DNA of 32,000 nt from Acaryochloris marina MBIC11017 (GTDB lineage: Bacteria > Cyanobacteriota > Cyanobacteriia > Thermosynechococcales > Thermosynechococcaceae), in contig NC_009925.1 in assembly GCF_000018105.1 (NCBI RefSeq), positions 6,240,001 to 6,272,000 on the forward strand. Reading direction: 5' to 3'. Positions 3,652 to 26,955 of this stretch are shown one piece after another. Position numbers and translations under genes: made by a program. The notes below the pieces were generated by a model. The model ran no database searches and was not told where the DNA came from. It worked only from the letters and a program-made list of their open reading frames with translations. Position 1 is the first letter of the stretch, and every line of letters begins with the position of its first letter.

Positions 3652-5383
3652 TTGAGGGCCCTTGAGAAGTGCAAGGAAAATCATTCAAAATATTTAAAAC
3701 CCTTGCACCTGCAACCCGATGTATCGCCGTCCATCCCCCGGTCAACTGTCCTTTGAGAACTTCTACTTGCCCTTTGGAGGGAAACTTTCAGGAGAGAATC
3801 GCTGGGTCAAACTAGCCGAGTTGATTCCTTGGGAGAGCTTTGAGTCAGAATATGCAGACCAATTCAGTCAGACCATGGGGGCACCTGCCAAACCCTTTCG
3901 TGTGGCCTTAGGGACCTTAATCATCAAAGAGAAACTGGGTATATCCGACGCAGAGACCGTAGAACAGATTCGAGAGAACCCCTACTTGCAGTACTTTCTG
4001 GGGTTTAGTGAATATCGAGAGAGTGCTCCGTTTGATGCCTCCATGCTGGTTCACTTTCGCCAACGGTTGAATCTAGAGCTGCTAGCTCAAGTCAATGACG
4101 CAGTCGTGGACTCTGTGCTGGCATCCGAGGGGTCTCCTGTGGCGATGTCCCCTGAGTCATCTCCTCCCTCTGACGATGATGAAGATGAGCCTCCTGCCCC
4201 TCCCAACCAGGGCCAATTGTTGATAGATGCGACCTGTGCACCAGCCGATATTCGCTATCCGACAGACTTGGATTTGCTCAATGATGCCCGCAAAGCAAGC
4301 GAAGCCATCCTCGATGCTTTATATGCTCAAGTCATGCTGTCCCTCAAGTGCAAACCTCGCACCTACCGCCAGAAGGCCCGCAAAGCCTATCTGGCCATTG
4401 CCAAAAAACGTCAACCGAGCCGCAAGCTGATTCGTAAAGGGATTCGTCAGCAGTTGGGCTATGTGCGTCGCAATCTAGCCCATATTGATGGGTTGATAAC
4501 ATTGGGGGCTTCCCTATCCCAATTGTCCCGGCGGCAGTACCGTCTGTTGCTGGTGATTCATGAAGTCTTTCGACAGCAAGAATGGATGTATCAACAGTCA
4601 GTACGTCGAGTGGACGACCGGATTGTCAGTATGAGTCAGCCTCATGTCCGACCGATGGTCCGAGGCAAAGCTGGAACACCCGTTGAGTTTGGAGCCAAGC
4701 TATCCCTCAGTTGTGTGCGTGGATGTGTGTTTCTGGAGCGCTTGAGTTGGGATGCGTTCAATGAATCCCAGCATCTTCAACATCAAGTGGAAGCCTTTCG
4801 TCGTCGCTTTGGCCATTATCCTTTCTCAGTCCATGCTGACCAAATCTATCGGACTCGGGCTAATCGACGATGGTGTAAAGCTCGGGGGATTCGCTTGAGT
4901 GGACCGCCGTTAGGAAGACCTCAACAAGACCCACAAGTACAGACCCAACTCAAGCAACAAGCGTGTGAGGATGAAAAGGTGAGGGTCCAGATTGAGGGTA
5001 AGTTTGGGCAGGCCAAGCGACGGTTTGGCTTGAATCGAGTGATGGCGAAGTTAGCGGATACGGCTGCCAGTGCGATTGCTATCACGTTCTTGGTCATGAA
5101 TCTGGAGCGGTGGCTCAGCCACTTTTTATCGTTCATTTTTGGGGTGGGATTGCTGGTTTTGGAAAGCGTTATGGAGCTGTCAGGACTTCCTTGGGGCTTT
5201 GCTAGGGCCAGTCAAAGGATATGGCTCTGGCCGTCACAAATGGGTTGCTTGTACGATTTGATGCATGGAATTTGCTCAATTTACTTTCTCAGCAAACCCT
5301 ACTTAAATTCCCAAACACCGTTGCTAGAGGAATACCCCACCTATCGGAGAAATGGAATAGCTTATTCGTATTTCTTAAAGTAA
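3652..5383 (+). mobile_element. IS5/IS1182-type insertion sequence (boundaries unresolved)
   Basis: Contains a single DDE transposase gene. I could not find convincing terminal inverted repeats. There is a weak candidate pair at about 3652-3685 and 5183-5215 (roughly two thirds identity by eye). Confidence 0.45.
3719..5383 (+). CDS. IS5-family DDE transposase with InsH-N/DUF772-type N-terminus
   Basis: N-terminus: FRVALGTLIIKEKLGISDAETVEQIRENPYLQYFLGF. DDE region: LLIDATCAPADIRYPTDLDLL, VHADQIY, IEGKFGQAKRRFGL. The last ~55 codons may be read-through beyond the IS end. Confidence 0.85.
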   Translation: MYRRPSPGQLSFENFYLPFGGKLSGENRWVKLAELIPWESFESEYADQFSQTMGAPAKPFRVALGTLIIKEKLGISDAETVEQIRENPYLQYFLGFSEYRESAPFDASMLVHFRQRLNLELLAQVNDAVVDSVLASEGSPVAMSPESSPPSDDDEDEPPAPPNQGQLLIDATCAPADIRYPTDLDLLNDARKASEAILDALYAQVMLSLKCKPRTYRQKARKAYLAIAKKRQPSRKLIRKGIRQQLGYVRRNLAHIDGLITLGASLSQLSRRQYRLLLVIHEVFRQQEWMYQQSVRRVDDRIVSMSQPHVRPMVRGKAGTPVEFGAKLSLSCVRGCVFLERLSWDAFNESQHLQHQVEAFRRRFGHYPFSVHADQIYRTRANRRWCKARGIRLSGPPLGRPQQDPQVQTQLKQQACEDEKVRVQIEGKFGQAKRRFGLNRVMAKLADTAASAIAITFLVMNLERWLSHFLSFIFGVGLLVLESVMELSGLPWGFARASQRIWLWPSQMGCLYDLMHGICSIYFLSKPYLNSQTPLLEEYPTYRRNGIAYSYFLK

Positions 5384-7863: not shown

Positions 7864-8241
7864 ATGCCTACTCTACTCGAAACACCGATTCTTCGCTTTG
7901 GTGTTGAGCGTCAAACCCAGCCTGATATGTGGCTGGTTCAGACTGAAGCTGATGGGATAGCCTTCATTAACGAGCACACCGAAGATCCGCTTTGCCCTCC
8001 CTATACGTTGGCTTGCATTCAGACAAAGGACTGCGGCCCCTTCGATGCTGATATCGATTTTGATGAATATTGGGTGCTGATGGTGACCCGCAAGCCAACC
8101 GCTGACGAGCGCACGACCCAGACCCGGATCGAGAACTGGGTTCTTAATCACCTTGAGCTTAAGGGTGTTCTCAGTGACTGGTTCACCGTGCCCGCCGATC
8201 AGACGGTTCGAGCTGAGAACGATTACGAGGACGAATTTTAA
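7864..8241 (+). CDS. Hypothetical acidic protein (125 aa)
   Basis: AGGA lies about 9 nt upstream of the ATG. The ORF has an acidic C-terminus (ENDYEDEF) and lies immediately upstream of the ArdC-like gene. No family recognised. Confidence 0.55.
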   Translation: MPTLLETPILRFGVERQTQPDMWLVQTEADGIAFINEHTEDPLCPPYTLACIQTKDCGPFDADIDFDEYWVLMVTRKPTADERTTQTRIENWVLNHLELKGVLSDWFTVPADQTVRAENDYEDEF

Positions 8242-8311
8242 AATCGTCCTGGGGCACCTTTGCCCCTCCTACTCCACACATACCCGCTCGCTACAAAAGG
8301 GGATTAATATT

Positions 8312-9181
8312 ATGACCACTCAATCCAAGCGTGAGAAGGCCCAGGCTAAACAACAAGCTGCATTGGAAAAGCTAGAGCAAGGCATCCTGAATATAGCCAG
8401 TGAAGCTGACTGGAGAAAATATCTAGACTTCCATTCCAAGTTCTATAACTACTCTGCCAGTAACACAATGCTCATTTATGGCCAATGTCCCGAGGCCAGC
8501 CACGTAGCAGGATATAAGGCTTGGCAAAAACTTGGGCGACAGGTCCGCAAAGGAGAGAAGGGCCTCGTTATCCTTGCCCCTTGTAAGAAAAAGGTAGAGG
8601 ACAAGGAAACGGGGGAACCAGTTTGGAGAATATACGGTTTCAAAACCTCCACTGTATTCGATATTAGCCAGACTGACGGCGATGACTTAGAGGAAACAGA
8701 TATCAAGGCCCCAACCACAGAGGCCGAGCTGTACCGCAATCTAAAGGCGTTCGGTGAGGCTCAAGGTTTCACAATCCTAGAGAAAGCCTACCCAGGCGCT
8801 TACGGCGTTTGTATCTACAAGCCTAATAGTATTGAGATCCAAGTTGATCCGCTGTTGAGCGTGGAGCTGAGAGCTAGCATCCTTGCCCATGAGTTGGGCC
8901 ATGCCTTAATGCATAGTGCGGCTGAGTATCACGACCACACCCCCACCTCAACCAAAGAACTAGAGGCTGAGTCTGTGGCCTACTGCGTCACCCAATATTT
9001 CGGAGTTGCAGAGGATCAGAAACGCTCCTTTGCTTATATCACCTGTTGGAACCGGGAAAGCGATCAGGCTCTGGGGCAATTCAAAGCATCGATGGATGCG
9101 ATCGCAAAAACAGTCAAGGCAATTATTGAAGGCATTGAAAGCGTTGCCTCCAATGAATCTAGCACTTTAGTAATTGCCTAA
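8312..9181 (+). CDS. ardC: ArdC-like protein: N-terminal ssDNA-binding ArdC-N/DUF1738 domain plus C-terminal HExxH metalloprotease domain
   Basis: YNYSASNTMLIYGQ...GYKAWQKLGRQVRKGEKGLVILAP matches the ArdC-N pattern. LAHELGHALMH is a zincin HExxH. ATG at 8312 follows AAAAGGGGA. The track start at 8153 overlaps the previous gene. Confidence 0.8.
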   Translation: MTTQSKREKAQAKQQAALEKLEQGILNIASEADWRKYLDFHSKFYNYSASNTMLIYGQCPEASHVAGYKAWQKLGRQVRKGEKGLVILAPCKKKVEDKETGEPVWRIYGFKTSTVFDISQTDGDDLEETDIKAPTTEAELYRNLKAFGEAQGFTILEKAYPGAYGVCIYKPNSIEIQVDPLLSVELRASILAHELGHALMHSAAEYHDHTPTSTKELEAESVAYCVTQYFGVAEDQKRSFAYITCWNRESDQALGQFKASMDAIAKTVKAIIEGIESVASNESSTLVIA

Positions 9182-9299
9182 TGACCTGGCTTGGGTGAGC
9201 CATTAATCACCCAACCATTTCAGATTCCAGAGAGATTTTGAAAACTTAGGGGGCAACGATGAACGGTTACACCCTCATCTGGTTCTTGTTTTGGCAATT

Positions 9300-9378
9300 G
9301 GGGTCCGACAACGATTCATGTAAAAACTGATCATAGGGCTGAAAGCTATATCTGATAGCTATTTCAGGCGACGATTTT
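9300..9378. repeat. Tn3-family terminal inverted repeat, tnpA-proximal end
   Basis: GGGGTCCGACAACGATTCATGTAAAAACTGATCATAGGGCTGAAAGCTATATCTGATAGCTATTTCAGGCGACGATTTT matches the reverse complement of 14114-14192 at about 70/79 positions (hand alignment). Confidence 0.9.
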
Positions 9379-9470
9379 AGGGTTTTGGCAAAATACGAAG
9401 TCTATTTCGGTACTGATACCCCATTCTTAAACTCTCTTTCCAACTGACCAACATAGATTTTAACCACCGA

Positions 9471-12400
9471 CTACACCAATATGGGCTCAGCCTCTTGTTC
9501 CTTTTGAGCAATCGGAATTTCGAAATTGATCGGTGGTGGATTGCGCTGTTGATCTAAGAAGAACAGCCCGAACCGATTGAGATGGTCCATCCAATAAGGG
9601 CTCAGTAATGCCAGAACTTCTGCATCATACGTGCGGCCATTTTGGGCTTCCTCATTGAGGATACGACTCATCTCTGAAACGTTGTAGAAAATGAGGCAGT
9701 TGGCCACCAGGTGATTGTATTTGATGCGCTTTCGAAGTTCAGCCCGGTTGTTGCTAGAGAGGACTTGGTTTTCACCGCCAAAAGCGATCCACTTAATAAA
9801 GCGATTAAATGCCTCGCACTTGTTGGTTTCAGCATGGATCGTTTCCTGCATTTGAGGATCGTTGATGTACTGCAGTAAAAAGATAGTTCTCAAGACGCCC
9901 CCAAGTTCATGAAAGGCTTGAAATAGCTTATTCTTACGGCTATTGGTTCCCAACTTTCTCAACAGGGTAGAGGCTTGAACTTTCCCGTCCTTAATGGACA
10001 ACGCCACCCGCAACATGTCCGGCAGGTGCGTCTCAATCAGATCCCAGTCCGTCACTTCGGTGAACAAGCTGTCCAAATGCTTGTAGCGGGTGCCCCGAGA
10101 CGGTCGATAGAACGCTAAGTTCTGCCAACCTCGAATGCGGGGCATTAGCGTAATGCCCAATAAAAATGCCAAGGCAAATACCGTACAGCTTTGGGATTGA
10201 GTATCGCCATGAATCGTGTCCGGTTGGATCTCGGAAGTATTCTTGAGCAATCCATCGAGGATGTAAACGGCTTCCCAAACACCACAGGGAATAAAGTGAC
10301 TGAACAGAGCAATGTAGGTATCGGAGATGTGGTAGTAGCCAATGCCGCCATACCCGCCATAGTGGATGTGATATTCCGCCAATAGATTCTGCTCATACAT
10401 ATCCCACTTGGTACCATCCACAGAAGCCTGTTTGCCGGACCCCCAAACCTTGGGAAGCGAAAAGCGATTGTAGGAATCGATAATCCCAGTAATGGCCTGT
10501 TGTATTTTCTCTTCACTGATATGGCGATGATGAATCCACCAGATTTGGCGACGGTCACTCCCTGGAACTGACCGTGCCAGCTGGTTGGGGCCAATGTTGC
10601 AGCCATAGCAAAATGTCGTGGTGATATAGCGTTCGACCGGATCTATGATCTTGGTATCAAAGCCAGATAGGGGCCCGAAGCACTGGGTCCAGTTGAGCCA
10701 TTTCTCGGTGTCACACAGCACATCCAGAATAGAGACGGGTTTGATCTTCCGTTCAATGAGTGCCTTCACTTCCGCCAATCCTTCAGGTAATTGACGTTGG
10801 CGTTTGTGGATCACCAGGCGGTCTTTTTTGAAACTCAAGTGAGCATTGGTGGGAAAGGCCTGATCTGCCGTCTTAGCCGCCGTTCGCAACCGCTGCTTCA
10901 TCTCTTGAACAAAGGCCTTACCCTCCGTTGGCAGATTGATCATCTTGCCATACTCTTCAGCTGAGTCCTGGTATTCTTCCCAAGAAATCAACTGGCTGTA
11001 ATAGTCCCCAAATTCATTACTGCCAGGAATATACAAATCCCCCGACTGCAGTTCCAGACTGATATGAGAGAACACGCACAACTCAAAGTAAAGGCGATGA
11101 ATTTTAGTGGGCGTAGTCTGTTGCGGGTCAGTGATCAATGACCGCCACTTGTTAGGCACCCAACTGAGATCCAGCAACGGGACAACCGCTTCATCAGGGG
11201 TGCCCTGATTGACGATCTGGGTCATCGGCACCCATTTACTGCGTTTGGACCGATGGGCTTTGATAAATTCAATCGCGTTGATTAAAGACTGGTCCTGGGT
11301 GCTAGAGCACAAGGGAAGTTGCTCTAGGAGTCGGAAGAATACGGCTCGATGGCTACGATAGAAACGAGTCAAAAAAGAGAAGTAGTTGTTGCCCACGTAG
11401 GCTAAGTGCTCTTGGCAATCGTCAATGAGCGGTTGTGGATCATCCCCAATCACAATTTTCATCGACTTGAAGCGTGTGGTGATCCGGCCTTCAGAGTCAT
11501 AGGCCAATAGAACATGCAAGAAGATATCGATGAGTTCATCCGTGCGAGCTTGCGTCCTGCGACGATAGTCACTCAGGGCTTCTGCCCCCTTGTGATGGAG
11601 CTGGCGGTCCCGTTTGATAAACATCTCCGCGAGATCATCCAGGGTGTTGGCATATTGAGTCGATAGCAAGGCCAGGGCTAAGGTATAGCGTTTAGCATCG
11701 CTCATTTCTTTCATGCGAGCGGCATCTAAAGACTGGGCCTCTGCGGCGAGGGCCTTGAGCTTGACGGCGGGAATATCCAGCAAACCGGAATTTGGGATCT
11801 GCAGATCAGCCAACCATTCCAATCGCTCAATCCACTCTTGCAGCCGCGAGAGCAAGGGTTTACCAGGGTCTTCCTTCAAGCGGTTCCACAACGATTTCTC
11901 TGCTAGAGAAGTCGACACAAATAACCGATTCAGCTTCACCCGCTCCGCCCGCTTTAAGGTCTGACTGACTTGTTCATACAGCTGAGTAGATACGGCTTGT
12001 CTGACCTGACGGGCTGCGCGATCTAGGGCAATAAAAGCGGGTAATTCCAATCGATGGCGGACCAATTCTTCAATGGCCACATTGATGAGGTCAGCGAGTT
12101 CATGTTTCGTCACTGCGGCCTTTTCCATGGACTCCTCAATGACCGCTTTGGCTTGAGGGCCATACTTGGTGATTTGTAGATACCCCCGAATAATATTCAG
12201 GTGCCGGTAACGCGTGGGGGAGCAATCATAAGTCGTCAGATCCAATTGGAAACCGTGCAGGCCAACTATAGTGGCGATGTGACGCACAGCAGCAGCGGGC
12301 ACATCACTGGTCTTGATGGCATAGCCCAAGCGCTGATAGGTTTTGAGCATCACCAAAAACCCCAATTGAGTTTGAGGACTACGGGTGAGGTGCTGCGCTA

Positions 12401-12500
12401 GCGCCATTTCCTCTTTAGTGGGAGTGTAGATAGCTGAAAGGTCTTGATCTGAAGGATTCCGTTTCAAACGTGGATAGGCGGTTTCATGTACACTGGCCAC
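9471..12500 (-). CDS. tnpA: Tn3-family transposase (DUF4158 N-terminus plus DDE_Tnp_Tn3)
   Basis: About 1009 aa with Tn3-type N-terminal features (RNPSDQDL...LGFLVMLKTYQRLGY) and a large C-terminal DDE domain. The GTG start at 12500 is preceded by AAGGAG. The track ORF extension to 12677 overlaps the upstream gene. Confidence 0.93.
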   Translation of the reverse strand: MASVHETAYPRLKRNPSDQDLSAIYTPTKEEMALAQHLTRSPQTQLGFLVMLKTYQRLGYAIKTSDVPAAAVRHIATIVGLHGFQLDLTTYDCSPTRYRHLNIIRGYLQITKYGPQAKAVIEESMEKAAVTKHELADLINVAIEELVRHRLELPAFIALDRAARQVRQAVSTQLYEQVSQTLKRAERVKLNRLFVSTSLAEKSLWNRLKEDPGKPLLSRLQEWIERLEWLADLQIPNSGLLDIPAVKLKALAAEAQSLDAARMKEMSDAKRYTLALALLSTQYANTLDDLAEMFIKRDRQLHHKGAEALSDYRRRTQARTDELIDIFLHVLLAYDSEGRITTRFKSMKIVIGDDPQPLIDDCQEHLAYVGNNYFSFLTRFYRSHRAVFFRLLEQLPLCSSTQDQSLINAIEFIKAHRSKRSKWVPMTQIVNQGTPDEAVVPLLDLSWVPNKWRSLITDPQQTTPTKIHRLYFELCVFSHISLELQSGDLYIPGSNEFGDYYSQLISWEEYQDSAEEYGKMINLPTEGKAFVQEMKQRLRTAAKTADQAFPTNAHLSFKKDRLVIHKRQRQLPEGLAEVKALIERKIKPVSILDVLCDTEKWLNWTQCFGPLSGFDTKIIDPVERYITTTFCYGCNIGPNQLARSVPGSDRRQIWWIHHRHISEEKIQQAITGIIDSYNRFSLPKVWGSGKQASVDGTKWDMYEQNLLAEYHIHYGGYGGIGYYHISDTYIALFSHFIPCGVWEAVYILDGLLKNTSEIQPDTIHGDTQSQSCTVFALAFLLGITLMPRIRGWQNLAFYRPSRGTRYKHLDSLFTEVTDWDLIETHLPDMLRVALSIKDGKVQASTLLRKLGTNSRKNKLFQAFHELGGVLRTIFLLQYINDPQMQETIHAETNKCEAFNRFIKWIAFGGENQVLSSNNRAELRKRIKYNHLVANCLIFYNVSEMSRILNEEAQNGRTYDAEVLALLSPYWMDHLNRFGLFFLDQQRNPPPINFEIPIAQKEQEAEPILV

Positions 12501-12504
12501 GACC

Positions 12505-12978
12505 TCAAACTCCTTGGATCTGCTGCTGGGTTTGATAGGGGGTTCCGCAATAGGGGCAAAAACGATGCTTGAGGGAGGTAATGGGTTCTTGGCAGCTGAT
12601 ACAGCGATCTTGTAGTCGAGTGCCGCAAGCAAAACAGTGTTTAGATCTGATGTCCATCCACAGCGGCTCTGGAGCACTGCCTATGCGCCAACACTGGGGG
12701 CAGAATTTCAAAGTTTGCGTGGCTTGGATGGCTCGACCTCGGCTGATGGAATCCAAGTAATCAGGTGGAATTTGTAAGGCACAAGCTAAGCCCTGACGAG
12801 TTTTATGATTGAGGGACAACGTTTTGCCGCGCTCCAGCTTACTCAAGCTTTGGGCATGAATATTGGCCTTGAGAGCGACTTCCTTCTGGGTGAGACCGAG
12901 TCTGACTCGCAGACGGCGAAGATACTCAGCCAAGGATTCATCGGCAAGGGGGAGGGAATCGGATTCTAAAGGTTGCAT
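12505..12978 (-). CDS. XRE-family HTH protein with C-terminal double zinc ribbon
   Basis: HTH: LGLTQKEVALKANIHAQSLSKLERGK. Four CxxC pairs: CPQC, CFAC, CISC, CPYC. Start is taken at MQPLES (12978). Alternative ATGs lie at 13020 and 13086. Confidence 0.7.
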   Translation of the reverse strand: MQPLESDSLPLADESLAEYLRRLRVRLGLTQKEVALKANIHAQSLSKLERGKTLSLNHKTRQGLACALQIPPDYLDSISRGRAIQATQTLKFCPQCWRIGSAPEPLWMDIRSKHCFACGTRLQDRCISCQEPITSLKHRFCPYCGTPYQTQQQIQGV

Positions 12979-13058: not shown

Positions 13059-13955
13059 ATGAATCAGCCTTTAGCCACCGTGGCAACCCAGTTTTTAGAT
13101 CGCCCCCATCTGGCTACGAGCACAGCCCGCTCCTATGAACTGACCTTGATGCCGTTACTGAAGCGATATGGCAGCTGGTCAGTGGAATTATTAGATGCTG
13201 ACATCCTGTCTGAGTATCTCAATAGCCTGACGCACCTGTCTTACACGACTCACCATCGGCATCAAGCCACCCTCAAGGACTTACTCAACTTTGCTGTGCG
13301 CCAACGGTATATTCGCAGCAATCCCATTGCCCAGTTAGAGCATCGTTCACCGGATAAAGCCAAGGGAGAGCATCTAAGTGATCAGCCCATTCGGTTCTTG
13401 AAACCCGAGCAATTGACCACCCTATATCAAGCTATTTATAACGATGCACGTTTGTATGCACTGGTGAAGCTATTGCATCACAGTGGGGCCCGCATCTCAG
13501 AAATCTTGGCTTTGGATTTAGCAGAAGTCGATCTGGGGCAACGGCAATTTCAGGTCGTGGGTAAAGGCAACAAAACCCGTTGGTGCTTTTACAGTGAAAA
13601 TGCAGCTGCAGCCTTGCAGACCTATATTCAGCACTATCGCTATACGCCTTCGCCAGCATTGTTCACGGCTAGAAAGACCCCTACGAGTCAAGTGACCCGT
13701 CTGAGTTACAGAACAGCCCATCATCACTGGCATCAATCGATTCAAGGCTATCCACAAATCCAAGGGATAAGGTTGCACGATCTGCGTCATACTTTTGCGA
13801 CAGAGCGAGTGGGACTAATGGGGTTGGAGGAACTCAGAGCGTTAATGGGGCACCAGCATATCCAGACCACCCTCCGATATCAGACCGTCACATCTGAACA
13901 AGCAAAAGGGGCAGCGCAAAGAGCATTTCAACATTTAGAAAATGCAGTTCAATAA
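13059..13955 (+). CDS. Tyrosine recombinase/integrase (likely the transposon cointegrate resolvase)
   Basis: N-terminal SAM-like domain, then SGARISEILAL (Arg), LHDLRHTFAT (HxxR) and LMGHQHIQTTLRYQ (His...Tyr). All catalytic residues are present. Confidence 0.9.
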   Translation: MNQPLATVATQFLDRPHLATSTARSYELTLMPLLKRYGSWSVELLDADILSEYLNSLTHLSYTTHHRHQATLKDLLNFAVRQRYIRSNPIAQLEHRSPDKAKGEHLSDQPIRFLKPEQLTTLYQAIYNDARLYALVKLLHHSGARISEILALDLAEVDLGQRQFQVVGKGNKTRWCFYSENAAAALQTYIQHYRYTPSPALFTARKTPTSQVTRLSYRTAHHHWHQSIQGYPQIQGIRLHDLRHTFATERVGLMGLEELRALMGHQHIQTTLRYQTVTSEQAKGAAQRAFQHLENAVQ

Positions 13956-20481: not shown

Positions 20482-21270
20482 TCACAATCCCAAAGCCAAC
20501 TGCACTTGCGTAACCTCCTTAGCCTCTTGCGGTAGGGGTTCTGGTCTAGTATTTTTCGCGGGGCAATATTTCTGATACCCGCAGCGATCGCAATGCTGTC
20601 CCGTCACGGGTTTCCATTCCTGATCGCATCTGAGCTTCATCGCCATATCTTCAATCAGAGATTGGGCTTGCTGGTGATGGTCAGGTGTGACCTCATAGGT
20701 CAGTTTCTCGTTAGAACGCAAGTAGATGAGACTCAGGCGTTTGAGCGCTTTCTTGTAGATCTGTTCCAGAATCAGATAGTAAAAACCCAATTGGATATCC
20801 ACTGATGGAGGAGGATTAACGGATTTGCTTGTCTTGTAATCAATCAGTTCCAGACCATCATCGATATAATCCAAGCGATCATACCGACCAGACAGGGTAA
20901 ATTCGATATTACGGACTTGGAGATTTGCCCTGACCTTTGTCTCAATCCCCAGCGGTTTGCGGATTTGGGGGAGTGAGGAAATATACCGCTCATAATAAAG
21001 CTGTAGTGCTACCCACCCCTCATGGACCTGAGTTGGGGTCAATTCACTCGTATGCTGCTGCCAACAAACGGCAAACCAATCGAGGGAAGGAAGAGGGTAA
21101 GCGTAGTTCCAATCCTTGTAGACATTGGCTAACGCTGCATGGAGAGCATTGCCAAGCTTGGTGGAGCCGAATATGGTTGGTGAAGGTAATTTATGCTCAT
21201 ACCTAAATTGATAGGATTTTGGGCACTGTCCGTAGGTTTTGAGCTTGGTGGCTGACAGGGAATAGGACAT
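20482..21270 (-). CDS. PD-(D/E)XK nuclease, Cas4/RecB-like with a four-Cys cluster
   Basis: N-terminal YGQCPKSYQFRY, the core GRYDRLDYIDDGLELIDYKTSK (D...ExK), and C-terminal CDRCGYQKYC. This arrangement is typical of Cas4/AddB-type nucleases with an Fe-S cluster. Confidence 0.85.
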   Translation of the reverse strand: MSYSLSATKLKTYGQCPKSYQFRYEHKLPSPTIFGSTKLGNALHAALANVYKDWNYAYPLPSLDWFAVCWQQHTSELTPTQVHEGWVALQLYYERYISSLPQIRKPLGIETKVRANLQVRNIEFTLSGRYDRLDYIDDGLELIDYKTSKSVNPPPSVDIQLGFYYLILEQIYKKALKRLSLIYLRSNEKLTYEVTPDHHQQAQSLIEDMAMKLRCDQEWKPVTGQHCDRCGYQKYCPAKNTRPEPLPQEAKEVTQVQLALGL

Positions 21271-21915: not shown

Positions 21916-23034
21916 TCAAACTGTGGAATCTGTTTCTATCCAATCGGGTAAATATTCAGAGTTCAGATTGTCATAAGTTGATAAGGTCTCATGATCATGA
22001 ATAGATGGGAGCTGAAGGAAAGGAAGCTTTCCAGAAGCTGGCATAGTATTTTTTGCAGATACCAAAGGCAAAGCCTTTTTCTTCGGGGGTAAAGGCTCTG
22101 CGACTTCGTCAGCAGCTTTGTTTAATCGCTCCTGTCCATATCTCTGGGAAGATAGCTTCGATGGGTAGGCAGCATCTACAGTTTTTTTAGCCAAAGTTCG
22201 CTGGGGTAGAATCACATTTTGAAATACGAATTCAACCGTTTCAAATTTGAGCCAGCCCCGAGACACCAAGATTTCTCCAAATCGCATTTCCGTAGAATCT
22301 TGATCCGATAAGACAACTTCTACTTGAGCCAAGGACAATAAGCCTGCATCAACTAGGTAACTACCAATGCGTTTAATGCCAGGATAGCGGGATGCATCTG
22401 TCCGACGATGTACTGTTTGTTTTTGTCTCAAACGGTTTTGGCGTTTTTTTGACTGAGTTTTATTAAAGTGCTTTTTCGGTTTGGAGGGTGTGGTGAGAGA
22501 GGGTTTTTCTGTACTTTTCAGCCAACTCAACATATTCAATGGGTTTAATCGCATCCAATGGCCCGAAATTTGAATCGTGATGATACCTCGCTCACAGACC
22601 AAGTTTTGGATAGGATATAAAACACCTCGATAGAGGATAAGTAAACTCATTAAAGAGCGCTGTTTATTCTCTTTTTCATACCTCCACCAGGCTTGTAATA
22701 AGTCTAGGGAATTAGTAAAGTGAACACTATAGTTTTTAGGAATATCAATAGGTTCATATTCATAAAAACCTGAAATGTTTGACTGGCGGATGGGCAAACA
22801 TTTTTGCTTGGCCATAGATTCATGCAACTGTGACCAAAAGCTAGACTTATAACGAATTGAGCTAAAGCGTCGTTTACCAGATAATTTAGCTGTAGCAATT
22901 AATCCTTCAGATTTAGCTAATAGTTGCAAAGTATCTCCAATTGGCTCAAACCTAAGCTCAGCATTGCTCTCAAATGCTGAGTAGCCTGAAAGATAACTTG
23001 ATACAAATACTTTTAAAAGTTCGGCATTGTTCAT
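21916..23034 (-). CDS. Hypothetical protein with a central basic linker and an MshEN/T2SSE_N-like domain
   Basis: RIGSYLVDAGLLSLAQVEVVLSDQ - DSTEM - RFGEILVSRGWLKFETVEFVFQNV comprises two tandem 24-residue motifs separated by 5 residues. The N-terminal 180 aa are unrecognised. Confidence 0.6.
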   Translation of the reverse strand: MNNAELLKVFVSSYLSGYSAFESNAELRFEPIGDTLQLLAKSEGLIATAKLSGKRRFSSIRYKSSFWSQLHESMAKQKCLPIRQSNISGFYEYEPIDIPKNYSVHFTNSLDLLQAWWRYEKENKQRSLMSLLILYRGVLYPIQNLVCERGIITIQISGHWMRLNPLNMLSWLKSTEKPSLTTPSKPKKHFNKTQSKKRQNRLRQKQTVHRRTDASRYPGIKRIGSYLVDAGLLSLAQVEVVLSDQDSTEMRFGEILVSRGWLKFETVEFVFQNVILPQRTLAKKTVDAAYPSKLSSQRYGQERLNKAADEVAEPLPPKKKALPLVSAKNTMPASGKLPFLQLPSIHDHETLSTYDNLNSEYLPDWIETDSTV

Positions 23035-23496
23035 AAGGGTAGAGTATGAACTTTAGTTGAGATAATAGAAGCCATTCCATCATACGATTGTTCTCAAACA
23101 GGTTGAGTGATCTATATCAATGACTGTTATAGATTTTATCTCTCATGAAATATATTAGGGAAACCACTCAATAAAATTCTCAGATTTCAAACTAAATAGC
23201 AGAGCGCTTAAGATCATGGAATAGCTTGATAAAAATGAGAAATAATTAATTTAACCCCAGCAACACCCCTATAATCTCTCCCTGAAGATTCTTCCAATTA
23301 TTGTCGTATTTAAGCACCGTTTTAGATTCATTAAAACACCAGCCATGCAATCACCCTCTCCACCTATCGGTGACCTCAAGATAACCCTACAATGCGGCCA
23401 GCGTCCTGTGCCTTGAGATTCGCTGAACATGCTTCGTCGGCACTCAAGCGTTATGCATCCGCACCAAAGCTGTGCATCTGAAGCTATGGGTACTAA

Positions 23497-23504
23497 ACCT
23501 TTCC
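23497..23504. repeat. ISL3 target-site duplication, left copy (ACCTTTCC)
   Basis: Identical 8-mer at 24890-24897, directly abutting the IRs. Confidence 0.9.
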
Positions 23505-24889
23505 GGCTCTCTGGGAATTAGCGTGTAGCAGTCCTACATTTAGTGTGTTTCCTTTTTCATCCCTATGGAATGATCTGAGGTAGTACTTCAGAGCAATGGC
23601 GTAATGGATAACTCAATTCGCATCCCGCTCAACCTTCCTGATATTCGAGTTCTAGAGCTATCGAAGACTGAGAGAGGGGATTGGCTCATCAAGATTGAGA
23701 GTACGCTTCAAGGAACAACCTGTCATCAATGCGGACGTGAGATTACTGACCTCCATTGTCATGATCAGCCTTTTCGGATTCGTCACCTGCCATTATTTGA
23801 AGTCCCCGTTTACTTAGAAATTCGGCCCAAGCGTTATCGATGCAAGTATTGCGATGACCATCCCACAACAACTCAACATTTAGAATGGCACGAACCTCGC
23901 AGTCCCAATACAAAAGCATATGAGCGTTGGCTTCTGCGAATCTTGATCAATTCAACGGTCTCAGATGTTGCCAGAAAACTAGGCGTTAGTGAGGATATCG
24001 TCAGTGGAATCATTGATCGTTGGATTGCCGCTCAAGTTGACTGGAGCGAATATGCAGACCTCAAAGTTATGGGGATGGATGAGATTTCTCTCAAACGAGG
24101 CCATCGTGATTTTGTGGTTTTGATCACGATTCCTACGACGGATGGGGTGGATATATTGGCAGTTCTAGCCGACCGTAAACAGCAGACAGTGGCAAATTTC
24201 CTTCAATCGATTCCCATTGATTTACGCCAAACCATTGAGCGCGTCTGTACGGACATGTACCAAGGATTTGTCAGTGCAGTCCGAGAACAATTGCCGCAAG
24301 CCAAAATTGTCATTGACCGCTTTCATGTGACCAAAGCCTATCGTAATTGTGCTGATACGGTTCGTAAACGTGAGGTCAAACGTCTACGACGAGAGCTCTC
24401 TAAGCAAGAGTATGACAGCATCAAAGGCGCGATGTGGCCTTTTAGAAAACGACCAGAGAATCTGAAAGAGTCAGAGCAACAACTCCTTGAGCGATTGTTT
24501 GCTTATTCTCCACAACTGAAACAGGCGTACAACCTCCGAGAGAAACTCACGCAGATATTTGAGGGCAGGTACACCAAGCACGGAGCTAAATGTGCCATCC
24601 GTGCTTGGTGTAAACAAGTACTCAAGAGTGACATCAAGGAATTCGATTGTTTTCTGACCACTATCAATAATTGGATGGACGAGATGACCAACTATTTCCT
24701 GGAGGGGTGGACCAGTGGTTTTGTGGAAGGATTTAATAACCGAGTCAAAGTCTTAAAAAGACGATGCTACGGTATTTTCGATATTGAAAGACTCTTCCAA
24801 AGGATTTCTCTTGACCTCAATGGGTATCAGACATTCGCTGTGACCTAAACACTATATCTAGCGGCTACCACGCTAATTCCCGGAGAGCC
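23505..24889 (+). mobile_element. Intact ISL3-family insertion sequence (1385 bp)
   Basis: Imperfect ~26-bp IRs: GGCTCTCTGGGAATTAGCGTGTAGC (left) versus GGCTCTCCGGGAATTAGCGTGGTAGC (right, reverse complement). Flanked by identical 8-bp ACCTTTCC. Contains a single full-length transposase. Confidence 0.95.
23604..24848 (+). CDS. ISL3-family transposase
   Basis: N-terminal zinc finger (CHQCG...RYRCKYC), an HTH, and a DDE_Tnp_ISL3-type C-terminus (GMDEISLKRGH..., VCTDMYQGF..., GFVEGFNNRVKVLKRRCYG). Confidence 0.95.
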   Translation: MDNSIRIPLNLPDIRVLELSKTERGDWLIKIESTLQGTTCHQCGREITDLHCHDQPFRIRHLPLFEVPVYLEIRPKRYRCKYCDDHPTTTQHLEWHEPRSPNTKAYERWLLRILINSTVSDVARKLGVSEDIVSGIIDRWIAAQVDWSEYADLKVMGMDEISLKRGHRDFVVLITIPTTDGVDILAVLADRKQQTVANFLQSIPIDLRQTIERVCTDMYQGFVSAVREQLPQAKIVIDRFHVTKAYRNCADTVRKREVKRLRRELSKQEYDSIKGAMWPFRKRPENLKESEQQLLERLFAYSPQLKQAYNLREKLTQIFEGRYTKHGAKCAIRAWCKQVLKSDIKEFDCFLTTINNWMDEMTNYFLEGWTSGFVEGFNNRVKVLKRRCYGIFDIERLFQRISLDLNGYQTFAVT

Positions 24890-24897
24890 ACCTTTCC
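24890..24897. repeat. ISL3 target-site duplication, right copy (ACCTTTCC)
   Basis: Identical 8-mer at 23497-23504. Confidence 0.9.
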
Positions 24898-25468
24898 AGT
24901 CCCACACGAGCAAAAGTATGCCTAAAGATTCGGTCTGCTGAACTCACCCGGATATAAGAACGGCCATGCCAACCGGGGGAAATAGGTGCGAGTTGGGTCA
25001 GGTGAATAAGCCACTAAATAGTCATACAGCTAGGGATGCATCGGCACTTCTCGCGTATCCCAATTGCCCTTCGTTTGATGCCAGCGAAACAACACCGAGG
25101 GTTTGGGTTTACTGGCGTTGACCACATCACTGGTGAGTAATGTACAGGCTTCACCGATCCTGAATCCGGTATAGAGGCAGACACCGAGCAAGGCTGATAA
25201 TCTCACTTAAATTCAAGATCAAAGCACTCTTGAACATGGGAATAATGGCGAAAGAGTTTCACAAAATATCTACATCGCGCTGCTATATAAACCCCGTTTC
25301 ATATTGACCATAAATCGTCCACTGATGTTGATCTCAGTACGATGTTTTCAGTTCGAAATTACTTGAGAAAACCTTTATTATTATTTGCCTAAGAAAGTAA
25401 ATAATTAGGCTACTCATAACTAAGGAAAATCATCTTTCATTTAGTAACTTTAAACCAAGATGTAAACC

Positions 25469-26653
25469 ATGAAGTCCTCTAACATTGAGAGTATAAAATC
25501 CTCCCATTGCTGGAAAATAATTGTTGTTGATGATAAGGAACAAGTTCATGCCGTTACTCGTCTGGCACTCCAAAATTTTCAATATAAGCACAAATCTCTA
25601 GAGCTTATTTCAGCCTATTCTAGTAGTGAAGGGCAACAACTATTAGAGCAAAATCCAGATACAGCCGTGCTGTTGCTGGATATAGTCATGGAAAGAGAAG
25701 AGGCTGGTTTAGATCTAGTTAAATATACTCGTGAGAAACTGCATAATCGGTTTATTCGTATAATTCTACGGACAGGTCAACCATGGATTGCTCCCGAACA
25801 GTCCATTATTGAAGAATATGACATCAATGGGTATATTTTAAAGACTGAATTAACCCAGCACAAACTCTTTTGTTTTCTATTAACAGCAATTCGAAACTAT
25901 CACAACTTACTGACTGTAGAAGAGGCTCGTCAGCATATATCTGCCCAAAACAAAGCACTAGAGAACTCTAATCTCATTTTGGAAAAGAAGGTGCAAGAGT
26001 ATACCCAGATATTACAAAAACAAACTTTAGCACTTGTCGAAAATAATAAAAAGCTCGAATTAGAAGTTCAGGCTAAGCTCCATGCTCAACAAAATCTAGA
26101 AATAATCAATGAAAAGCTTTTTGAGGCGAATAAGAAGCTCTCCCTACTTGCCAACCAAGATGCATTGACAGGTTTGGCTAATCGTCGTTATTTCGATGTG
26201 TATTTGCAACAAGTTTGGGAATCTGCTCAAGAAAACAAGCATCCATTGAGTATATTGATTTGTGATATTGATTTTTTTAAGGGTTATAACGATAGTTATG
26301 GACATCCAGAGGGTGATCATTGCCTTCAAAGGGTCTCCCAAATCATTCACCGAGTTGCTGGGAAATCCGAGGGCTTCGCTGCACGCTTTGGTGGTGAAGA
26401 GTTTGCTATGGTTCTACCCAATACCAACCTCATAGATAGTCAAACAATAGCTGGTAAGTTAAGGTCAGAGATTCACAACGCTCGTCTCCCTCATCGAGCT
26501 TCAACAGTTAGTGAGTATGTAACAGTGAGTATTGGTGTGACCTCAATACAATTTCAGTCAGATGGATCAATAAATGACTTGATCCATCGGGCAGATCAGG
26601 CCCTCTATGGAGCTAAAAAACTAGGACGCAACCAGTTCGTTACCCTTCACTAG
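25469..26653 (+). CDS. Response-regulator receiver - coiled coil - GGDEF diguanylate cyclase
   Basis: REC domain: VVDDKEQ, LLLDIVM, ILRTGQP, GYILKT. A long coiled-coil linker follows. GGDEF domain: DALTGLANRR, ICDIDFFKGYND, RFGGEEFAMVLP. Confidence 0.9.
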   Translation: MKSSNIESIKSSHCWKIIVVDDKEQVHAVTRLALQNFQYKHKSLELISAYSSSEGQQLLEQNPDTAVLLLDIVMEREEAGLDLVKYTREKLHNRFIRIILRTGQPWIAPEQSIIEEYDINGYILKTELTQHKLFCFLLTAIRNYHNLLTVEEARQHISAQNKALENSNLILEKKVQEYTQILQKQTLALVENNKKLELEVQAKLHAQQNLEIINEKLFEANKKLSLLANQDALTGLANRRYFDVYLQQVWESAQENKHPLSILICDIDFFKGYNDSYGHPEGDHCLQRVSQIIHRVAGKSEGFAARFGGEEFAMVLPNTNLIDSQTIAGKLRSEIHNARLPHRASTVSEYVTVSIGVTSIQFQSDGSINDLIHRADQALYGAKKLGRNQFVTLH

Positions 26654-26955
26654 AATCTAGAAGGTAACCCAATTGAAAAGTTACTAACTGAATCTCCTTG
26701 TTTAACATTCCTACTCCCACCACCTCTCCCTAAAGGTCTTTCTGATTATCTTCAGGCAATCCCTCCGCTAACTGGTCATAGACAGTAAAAACTTGAGTGA
26801 CAATGAAGCATAAAAACTATGGCATGCCCTGAATCCCTGGAGCTGGGAGTTCCAGCAGTTCAACCTCAGAGATATGTTGGCTTCGCTGCTGTTTGTTGCC
26901 TTCACGAAGCCAGACAACAGCAGAACTGGTACAACCTTGCCGCGCTGATATGATC

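Follow-up and report, generated by a model that had tools for sequence, protein, structure and literature searches.

A candidate c-di-GMP effector of the MshEN_N-only kind in Acaryochloris marina MBIC11017, with an N-terminal domain of a cyanobacterial family and a conserved C-terminal motif

The window analyzed here is the whole 32,000-nucleotide stretch of contig NC_009925.1 of Acaryochloris marina MBIC11017 from position 6,240,001 to position 6,272,000, and the coordinates used below count from its first letter. The protein of principal interest, the target, is encoded on its reverse strand; its parts and the relevant neighbors are as follows.

21916..23034, reverse strand: the whole gene, a 372-residue open reading frame comprising an N-domain, a linker, an MshEN_N module, a disordered tail, and a C-terminal motif
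22501..23034, reverse strand: N-domain (residues 1–178), globular alpha/beta according to AF2 and free of any Pfam match
22372..22500, reverse strand: basic linker (residues 179–221, KPKKHFNKTQSKKRQNRLRQKQTVHRR…), very basic, disordered, and poorly conserved
22213..22371, reverse strand: MshEN_N motif (residues 222–274), two 24-residue half-sites and a 5-residue spacer
22006..22212, reverse strand: residues 275–343, the end of helix 4 (ILPQRTLAKK) followed by a variable, Pro-rich, low-confidence segment
21940..22005, reverse strand: C-terminal linear motif (residues 344–365, SIHDHETLSTYDNLNSEYLPDW), conserved in homologues
23505..24889, forward strand: ISAcma10 (ISL3 family), 1385 bp, with transposase domains, lying between the target and the cyclase
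25469..26653, forward strand: (REC-like)-GGDEF diguanylate cyclase (GGDEF Pfam E 1e-49)
3719–5383, 8153–9181, 9471–12677, and 13059–13955: mobile-element genes (DDE_Tnp_1_2 transposase, ArdC-like/M78, Tn3-family transposase, and phage-type integrase)

Homologues of the 372-residue protein align with it starting at Met1 (alignment of 25 homologues), and one family sequence (P0001) is 100% identical to it. The mean column identity in the homologue alignment is highest in the MshEN_N module (0.85), is similar in the C-terminal motif (0.70) and the N-domain (0.69), and is about 0.35 in the linkers; the basic linker at residues 179–221, with a value of 0.38, also has a pLDDT below 50 in the AF2 model. 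The pLDDT is again below 50 from residue 290 onward, and residues 275–343 vary in length among the homologues. The 53-residue, four-helix MshEN_N module is thus embedded in a long disordered stretch that follows the compact N-domain, and the preliminary description of this DNA, which had reported a very basic linker and an N-domain of about 180 residues belonging to no recognized family, was accurate on both points. Within the C-terminal motif, Ser344, His346, Glu349, and Thr350 are invariant or nearly so; the family consensus is SIHDRETLxTYDKLxxEDLPDW, with variants of the form S[IV]H[DES]RET[LF]…DLPDW, and the motif is present across the whole clade of proteins that combine the N-domain with MshEN_N, including the members P0052–P0060. 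The architecture of N-domain, MshEN_N, and tail was found only in Acaryochloris, Acaryochloridaceae, Thermosynechococcaceae, and Petrachloros, and the MshEN_N subtype by itself is widespread among Leptolyngbya-type cyanobacteria.

Translation of the reverse strand between positions 22213 and 22371 gives RIGSYLVDAGLLSLAQVEVVLSDQ-DSTEM-RFGEILVSRGWLKFETVEFVFQNV, exactly as previously quoted. The first block, RIGSYLVDAGLLSLAQVEVVLSDQ, conforms to the published consensus RLGxx(L/V/I)(L/V/I)xxG(L/V/I)(L/V/I)xxxx(L/V/I)xxx(L/V/I)xxQ at all fixed positions with the single exception of an Ile for Leu, a fit that had been noted before and is reproduced here, and Gly224, Leu227, Leu232, Leu242, and Gln245 are invariant in the 25 homologues. 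A profile search of this module had been proposed in the preliminary description, and it yields significant matches. Residues 222–267 match the NCBIfam model NF053729 (“c-di-GMP_motif, MshE-related”) with 38.6 bits and an E-value of 6.8e-10, but it should be noted that the curated cutoff of this model is 38 bits, leaving a margin of 0.6 bits, and that the alignment covers only model positions 1–46 of 53. Weaker NCBIfam matches are to the MshEN regions of glycosyltransferases of the NfrB type (PRK15489) and of EpsG. A profile built from the 25 homologues matches the N-domain of Vibrio cholerae MshE (PDB 5HTL, residues 7–75) with an E-value of 5.7e-10, and also matches the three MshEN repeats of Thermus PilF. 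In a Pfam scan of the 372-residue protein at E ≤ 10, no match was obtained to any model, including T2SSE_N (PF05157); this is explained by the observation of Wang et al. (PMC5013675) that helices 1–3 of MshEN_N are not covered by the Pfam model. Residues 222–274 are, on sequence comparison, a genuine MshEN_N-type motif, matching far beyond chance, and the profile alignments establish it as a homologue of the bundle with which V. cholerae MshE binds c-di-GMP.

The roles of individual residues were assigned by mapping the 5HTL profile alignment onto the contacts described by Wang et al. (PMC5013675). In half-site 1, Arg9, Leu10, and Gly11 of MshE correspond to Arg222, Ile223, and Gly224 of the window protein, Leu14/Val15 to Leu227/Val228, Gly18 to Gly231, Ile19/Val20 to Leu232/Leu233, Leu25 to Val238, Leu29 to Leu242, and Gln32 to Gln245, so that all contact or scaffold positions of this half-site are retained. 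In half-site 2, Arg38, Leu39, and Gly40 correspond to Arg251, Phe252, and Gly253, Leu43/Ile44 to Leu256/Val257, Gly47 to Gly260, Phe48 to Trp261, and Leu49 to Leu262. The end of half-site 2 can be aligned in two ways. In an ungapped alignment, Val267, Phe271, and Val274 take the places of Leu54, Leu58, and Gln61; with the 1-residue gap chosen by HMMER, these places are taken by Thr266, Val270, and Asn273, and the following conserved “LP” is then also aligned. Thr266 is invariant in the family, and the terminal residue is Val274, which falls outside even the relaxed class [QNKRYWST], in the ungapped alignment and Asn273 in the gapped one. Of the tandem arrangement previously proposed, the 5-residue spacer and the Arg-Phe-Gly, Leu-Val, and Gly-Trp-Leu elements of the second block are present, and the end of this block has Val or Asn where MshE has Gln. 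The mapped contact positions are invariant or nearly so among the 25 homologues, and most are 90–100% conserved among 84 unique cyanobacterial MshEN_N sequences of this subtype, whose consensus is KRLGxYLVEAGLLTxAQVxVALNDQxxTGMRFGEILVARGWLKxQTIEYLMxKVILPER; some orthologues, however, have Lys, Gln, or Cys instead of the first Arg (position 222). AF2 places helices at residues 223–229, 235–248, 252–258, and 264–289 with moderate confidence (pLDDT 60–77). Beyond the bundle the chain is disordered, and neither an MshEN_C (T2SSE_N1) subdomain nor a GspE-type ATPase was detected by Pfam at E ≤ 10. A resemblance of residues 7–44 to the start of a PilF ATPase core (“ASDIHIEP…RIDG”) was considered and ruled out, the match scoring −1.1 bits and Foldseek giving no PilB/PilT-like fold.

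It should be recognized that the motif in this exact protein was published in 2016. Wang et al. (PMC5013675) list AM1_H0057 (residues 214–292) and AM1_6196 (residues 179–257) of A. marina MBIC11017 among the MshEN proteins in their Supplementary Table 3 and Fig. 3c, with the sequence ASRYPGIKRIGSYLVDAGLLSLAQVEVVLSDQDSTEMRFGEILVSRGWLKFETVEFVFQNVILPQRTLAKKTVDAAYPS, and residues 214–292 of the window protein are identical to that 79-residue string, barring text-recognition noise in the stored supplement. The two entries are identical copies of the motif, one on the chromosome (AM1_6196) and one on a plasmid (AM1_H0057); the paralogue AM1_1361 and further MshEN_N proteins appear in the same supplement, and the 12 MshEN_N proteins that this census assigns to Acaryochloris are an unusually large set (PMC5013675). 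In the part of the table in which they stand, AM1_H0057 and AM1_6196 share a column with MshE, PA2677, and NfrB, for which binding has been proven, and the nonbinding PilB and GspE of V. cholerae are found in the second column (PMC5013675); the meaning of the columns is inferred from this pattern of binders and nonbinders. The motif itself adds nothing beyond that catalogue. When the preliminary description spoke of an “otherwise unrecognised protein,” this was justified for the N-domain, which has neither a Pfam match nor a similar solved structure. The arrangement of N-domain, MshEN_N, and SIHDRETL motif, for its part, is absent from the architecture table of Wang et al. (PMC5013675).

Modeled alone, the N-domain (residues 1–178) is predicted by AF2 with a pLDDT of 92 and a pTM of 0.85, the order of elements being helix, four strands, helix, three strands, helix, and five strands; its conserved features are an LLQxWW motif and Tyr93, Pro99, Tyr102, and Trp171. 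Structure prediction of this domain, which had also been suggested earlier, thus provides a confident alpha/beta model with no similar solved structure in the PDB: the best Foldseek match there has an E-value of 0.04, with TM scores of at most 0.23 (fragments of beta-clamp, YjbR, and Tudor structures), and a search of BFVD returned only sub-matches of 60–70 residues to small barrels. The full-length model gave nothing significant against the PDB, probably because one-third of it is of low confidence. An exhaustive profile search at E ≤ 1e-3 delineates an N-domain family of 211 clusters at 50% identity, 187 of them with E < 1e-10; all members with a named source are cyanobacterial, and a profile search for named or model-organism members yielded nothing but entries labeled “hypothetical protein,” belonging to Halomicronema, Leptolyngbyaceae, and metagenome-assembled genomes of marine origin. 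MshEN_N occurs only in the clade nearest to the target (P0001–P0060), the other members being stand-alone or joined to different C-terminal modules, and among 63 proteins scanned the N-domain lies downstream of pentapeptide repeats (three cases), REC (two), PAS (two), and a Ser/Thr kinase (one). Given these fusions to REC, PAS, Ser/Thr kinase, and pentapeptide domains, a role in protein interaction or signalling output is the most likely one for the N-domain.

Several other arrangements were seen in these searches. Many of the N-domain proteins outside the MshEN clade (P0062–P0198) have a C-terminal segment, GRLYIQTAIGEVVVEGxNLKFWLN, similar to the final hairpin of their own N-domain, whereas the C terminus of others is formed by a “CPxWVIE” module or a coiled coil. 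The idea that a “YRDRE” motif is a general C-terminal feature of the more distant N-domain proteins was considered and set aside as too thin, the motif being present in only 5 of 98 (0.2 expected by shuffling). Three proteins of 234–250 residues (P0049–P0051) consist of a disordered N terminus, one MshEN_N with PIG in place of RIG, and a long disordered tail with a conserved “ENLVWIG” C terminus; they make up a minimal MshEN_N architecture, the second one seen in cyanobacteria.

The window protein is rather probably a cytoplasmic receptor for c-di-GMP of the “MshEN_N-only” class, and binding of c-di-GMP by its module is likely. Isolated MshEN_N binds this ligand at 0.35 μM, and binding survives fusion to unrelated domains (PMC5013675); as of 2025, no binding assays on cyanobacterial MshEN domains had been reported (PMC12448109). 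By analogy, one c-di-GMP would be sandwiched between the two half-sites, with Arg222 and Arg251 stacking on the guanines and the backbones of Gly224 and Gly253 bonding to their Hoogsteen edges, whereas the hydrophobic triangles would be formed by Ile223, Val238, Leu242, Phe252, and the Val267/Phe271 region, Gln245 adding hydrogen bonds. Ligand binding may then order the MshEN_N bundle inside the disordered region, and this ordering could alter the engagement of the N-domain and the C-terminal motif with each other or with a partner. Since the AF2 full-length model has no confident contact between domains, this output mechanism is something that we purely infer.

The alternative to be taken most seriously, although it appears appreciably less probable than binding, is that the module is a degenerate MshEN_N-like bundle that does not bind c-di-GMP and has only a structural role or one in protein interaction, like the N-domains of XpsE/GspE and of PilB from V. 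cholerae. The altered end of half-site 2, which has no Gln and requires a 1-residue gap relative to MshE, is consistent with this alternative, and Q61V is among the changes found, with G11V, R38G, G40L, L54H, and others, in the nonbinder XpsE (PMC5013675), the equivalent of Gln61 in the window protein being Val274 or Asn273. The NF053729 match covers 46 of 53 positions with a score at the threshold, some orthologues have Cys or Gln in place of the first Arg, and reviews describe the MshEN domains of Synechocystis as not having a fully conserved motif. In addition, Tyr226, Asp244, Trp261, Thr266, and Glu268 are invariant in this subtype but not needed for the ligand, suggesting some other constraint. 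However, the two Gly residues that are critical for binding (Gly11 and Gly40 of MshE; PMC5013675) and almost all of the hydrophobic contact positions are retained and strongly conserved, and of the many simultaneous disruptive changes in XpsE only that of the Gln61 type is present. Substitutions of Arg9 and Gln32 change the affinity by less than five-fold (PMC5013675). The reading as a candidate c-di-GMP effector, which the preliminary description had put forward, remains the best one, and the lack of a significant profile match, which that description had named as refuting it, was not observed; the novelty of the motif is not supported.

That description also drew attention to a REC-GGDEF cyclase 2.4 kb away at position 25469. 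The distance and the GGDEF domain are confirmed, but the REC match, at 24.5 bits, is below the Pfam cutoff of 30.2. The intervening ISAcma10 has inverted repeats ggctctc(t/c)gggaattagcgtg and lies between the two perfect copies of an 8-bp target-site duplication (acctttcc, 23497–23504 and 24890–24897); it represents a simple insertion, and its 100% identity with copies on plasmids of A. marina MBIC10699 marks this insertion as very recent. The possibility that the insertion sequence created the adjacency of target and cyclase was ruled out, a simple insertion with an 8-bp duplication meaning that the adjacency is older. Separately, a segment of about 150 bp upstream of the insertion site (23332–23497) is about 80% identical to two stretches of another Acaryochloris contig (L010, 233–384 and 6977–7091) and may be a small dispersed repeat.

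Co-occurrence in relatives is not consistent with the target and the divergent (REC)-GGDEF gene forming a dedicated local cyclase-effector pair, which is very unlikely even though the two genes are so close in the window and were only about 1.04 kb apart, in divergent orientation, before ISAcma10 was inserted. Among 84 related loci, which together span 1.23 Mb, only 5 have a GGDEF gene within the fetched flanks; this corresponds to about 1 per 245 kb, which we take to be about the genomic background for such genomes and not an enrichment, and only two of the five loci encode full-length family members; none was seen in the homologue contexts first inspected. The nearest homologues lie in unrelated contexts and have only about 200 bp of upstream sequence in common with the window. 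The cyclase with an integrase remnant (about 25067–26714) is 92–96% identical to part of the conjugative plasmid pREC2 of A. marina MBIC10699 (L085, 4001–5648), where the cassette adjoins a porin gene and no relative of the target is found, and a tblastn search of the PLSDB plasmids with the target protein gave no match. The cyclase and integrase remnant are, on this comparison, a portable cassette, and the window as a whole is packed with mobile elements, at a density that gives it a plasmid-like character. The neighboring GGDEF gene is probably not a dedicated partner, and the adjacency is specific to this strain. Weakest of all is the proposal that the module recognizes another cyclic dinucleotide such as 3′3′-cGAMP, which is hardly credible: an altered half-site 2 could change specificity and VcMshEN does bind cGAMP weakly (0.33 mM; PMC5013675), but this is about 600-fold below its affinity for c-di-GMP, the guanine-recognizing Arg-hydrophobic-Gly elements are kept in both half-sites, and the homologue neighborhoods examined contained neither a CD-NTase nor cGAMP machinery.

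For the candidate c-di-GMP receptor, the only lead to a partner comes from the gene order in relatives. A fused double ABC ATPase of 625–661 residues, of the GsiA/YejF/Opp type, is encoded directly upstream in 10 of 19 full-length loci (L011–L018, L020, and L021; for example, L013 at 7966–9912), on the same strand and at a distance of 86–343 bp, its best NCBIfam matches being GsiA and YejF, both below their cutoffs. These loci, which span Acaryochloris, Petrachloros, and Thermosynechococcaceae, include those of the older, AM1_1361-type paralogues; the window protein's own clade has left the ABC ATPase context. The ABC ATPase gene and the N-domain/MshEN gene may form an operon. A more specific proposal, that the protein is a c-di-GMP-gated adaptor, composed of a cyanobacterial signalling N-domain with no solved relative, MshEN_N, and the SIHDRETL motif, whose original target was the upstream fused GsiA/YejF-type ABC ATPase, is speculative and on balance improbable; if true, it would constitute a new class of c-di-GMP output in cyanobacteria, where receptors are scarce. 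On the other side of the target in the window, a gene for a PD-(D/E)XK/Cas4-like nuclease (20482–21270, reverse strand) lies 646 bp downstream, and in L005 the homologue is separated by 4.5 kb, occupied by an ABC transporter cluster, from a PDDEXK_1 gene, a weak and partial synteny with the window.

Cyanobacteria have many c-di-GMP cyclases but few known receptors, and the present family offers a clean test case in which an isolated MshEN_N lies between a well folded domain and a conserved tail motif; binding and a partner, if shown, would add an output pathway. Judged from its sequence, the protein is a candidate effector of a known kind, and what the analysis contributes is an N-domain family that is now defined, a conserved tail motif, and the synteny with the ABC ATPase.

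The nearest counterpart is the MshEN_N module of V. cholerae MshE (5HTL; PMC5013675), with which the window protein shares the tandem 24-residue half-sites of the form R-h-G…G-h-h…h…h…Q, the 5-residue spacer, and a predicted four-helix bundle. They differ in that the window protein has no MshEN_C/T2SSE_N1 or ATPase and carries the module internally (residues 222–274) rather than at the N terminus; its half-site 2, which the HMM alignment makes shorter by one residue, has Val/Asn where that of MshE has the final Gln, and its subtype has the extra invariant residues Tyr226, Asp244, Trp261, Thr266, and Glu268. The “MshEN_N only” proteins of Wang et al. (PMC5013675), EpsG (MshEN_N-AAA_31), Bd2402 (REC-MshEN_N-UNK), and AM1_1153 and AM1_1657 of A. 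marina, are similar in joining a stand-alone MshEN_N to unrelated or unassigned domains, but the domain order of the window protein is not among theirs. NfrB of Escherichia coli and the PRK15489 glycosyltransferases give weak but specific matches and likewise have the module downstream of another domain; however, the MshEN of NfrB is complete, with N and C subdomains, and the window protein has no glycosyltransferase domain. CdgR/ComFB, the only characterized widespread cyanobacterial c-di-GMP receptor in the literature, is a small cytoplasmic effector that acts through protein-protein interaction, a role for which the window protein is a candidate, but the two are unrelated in fold and motif, and CdgR has been validated experimentally, whereas the function of the window protein is predicted.
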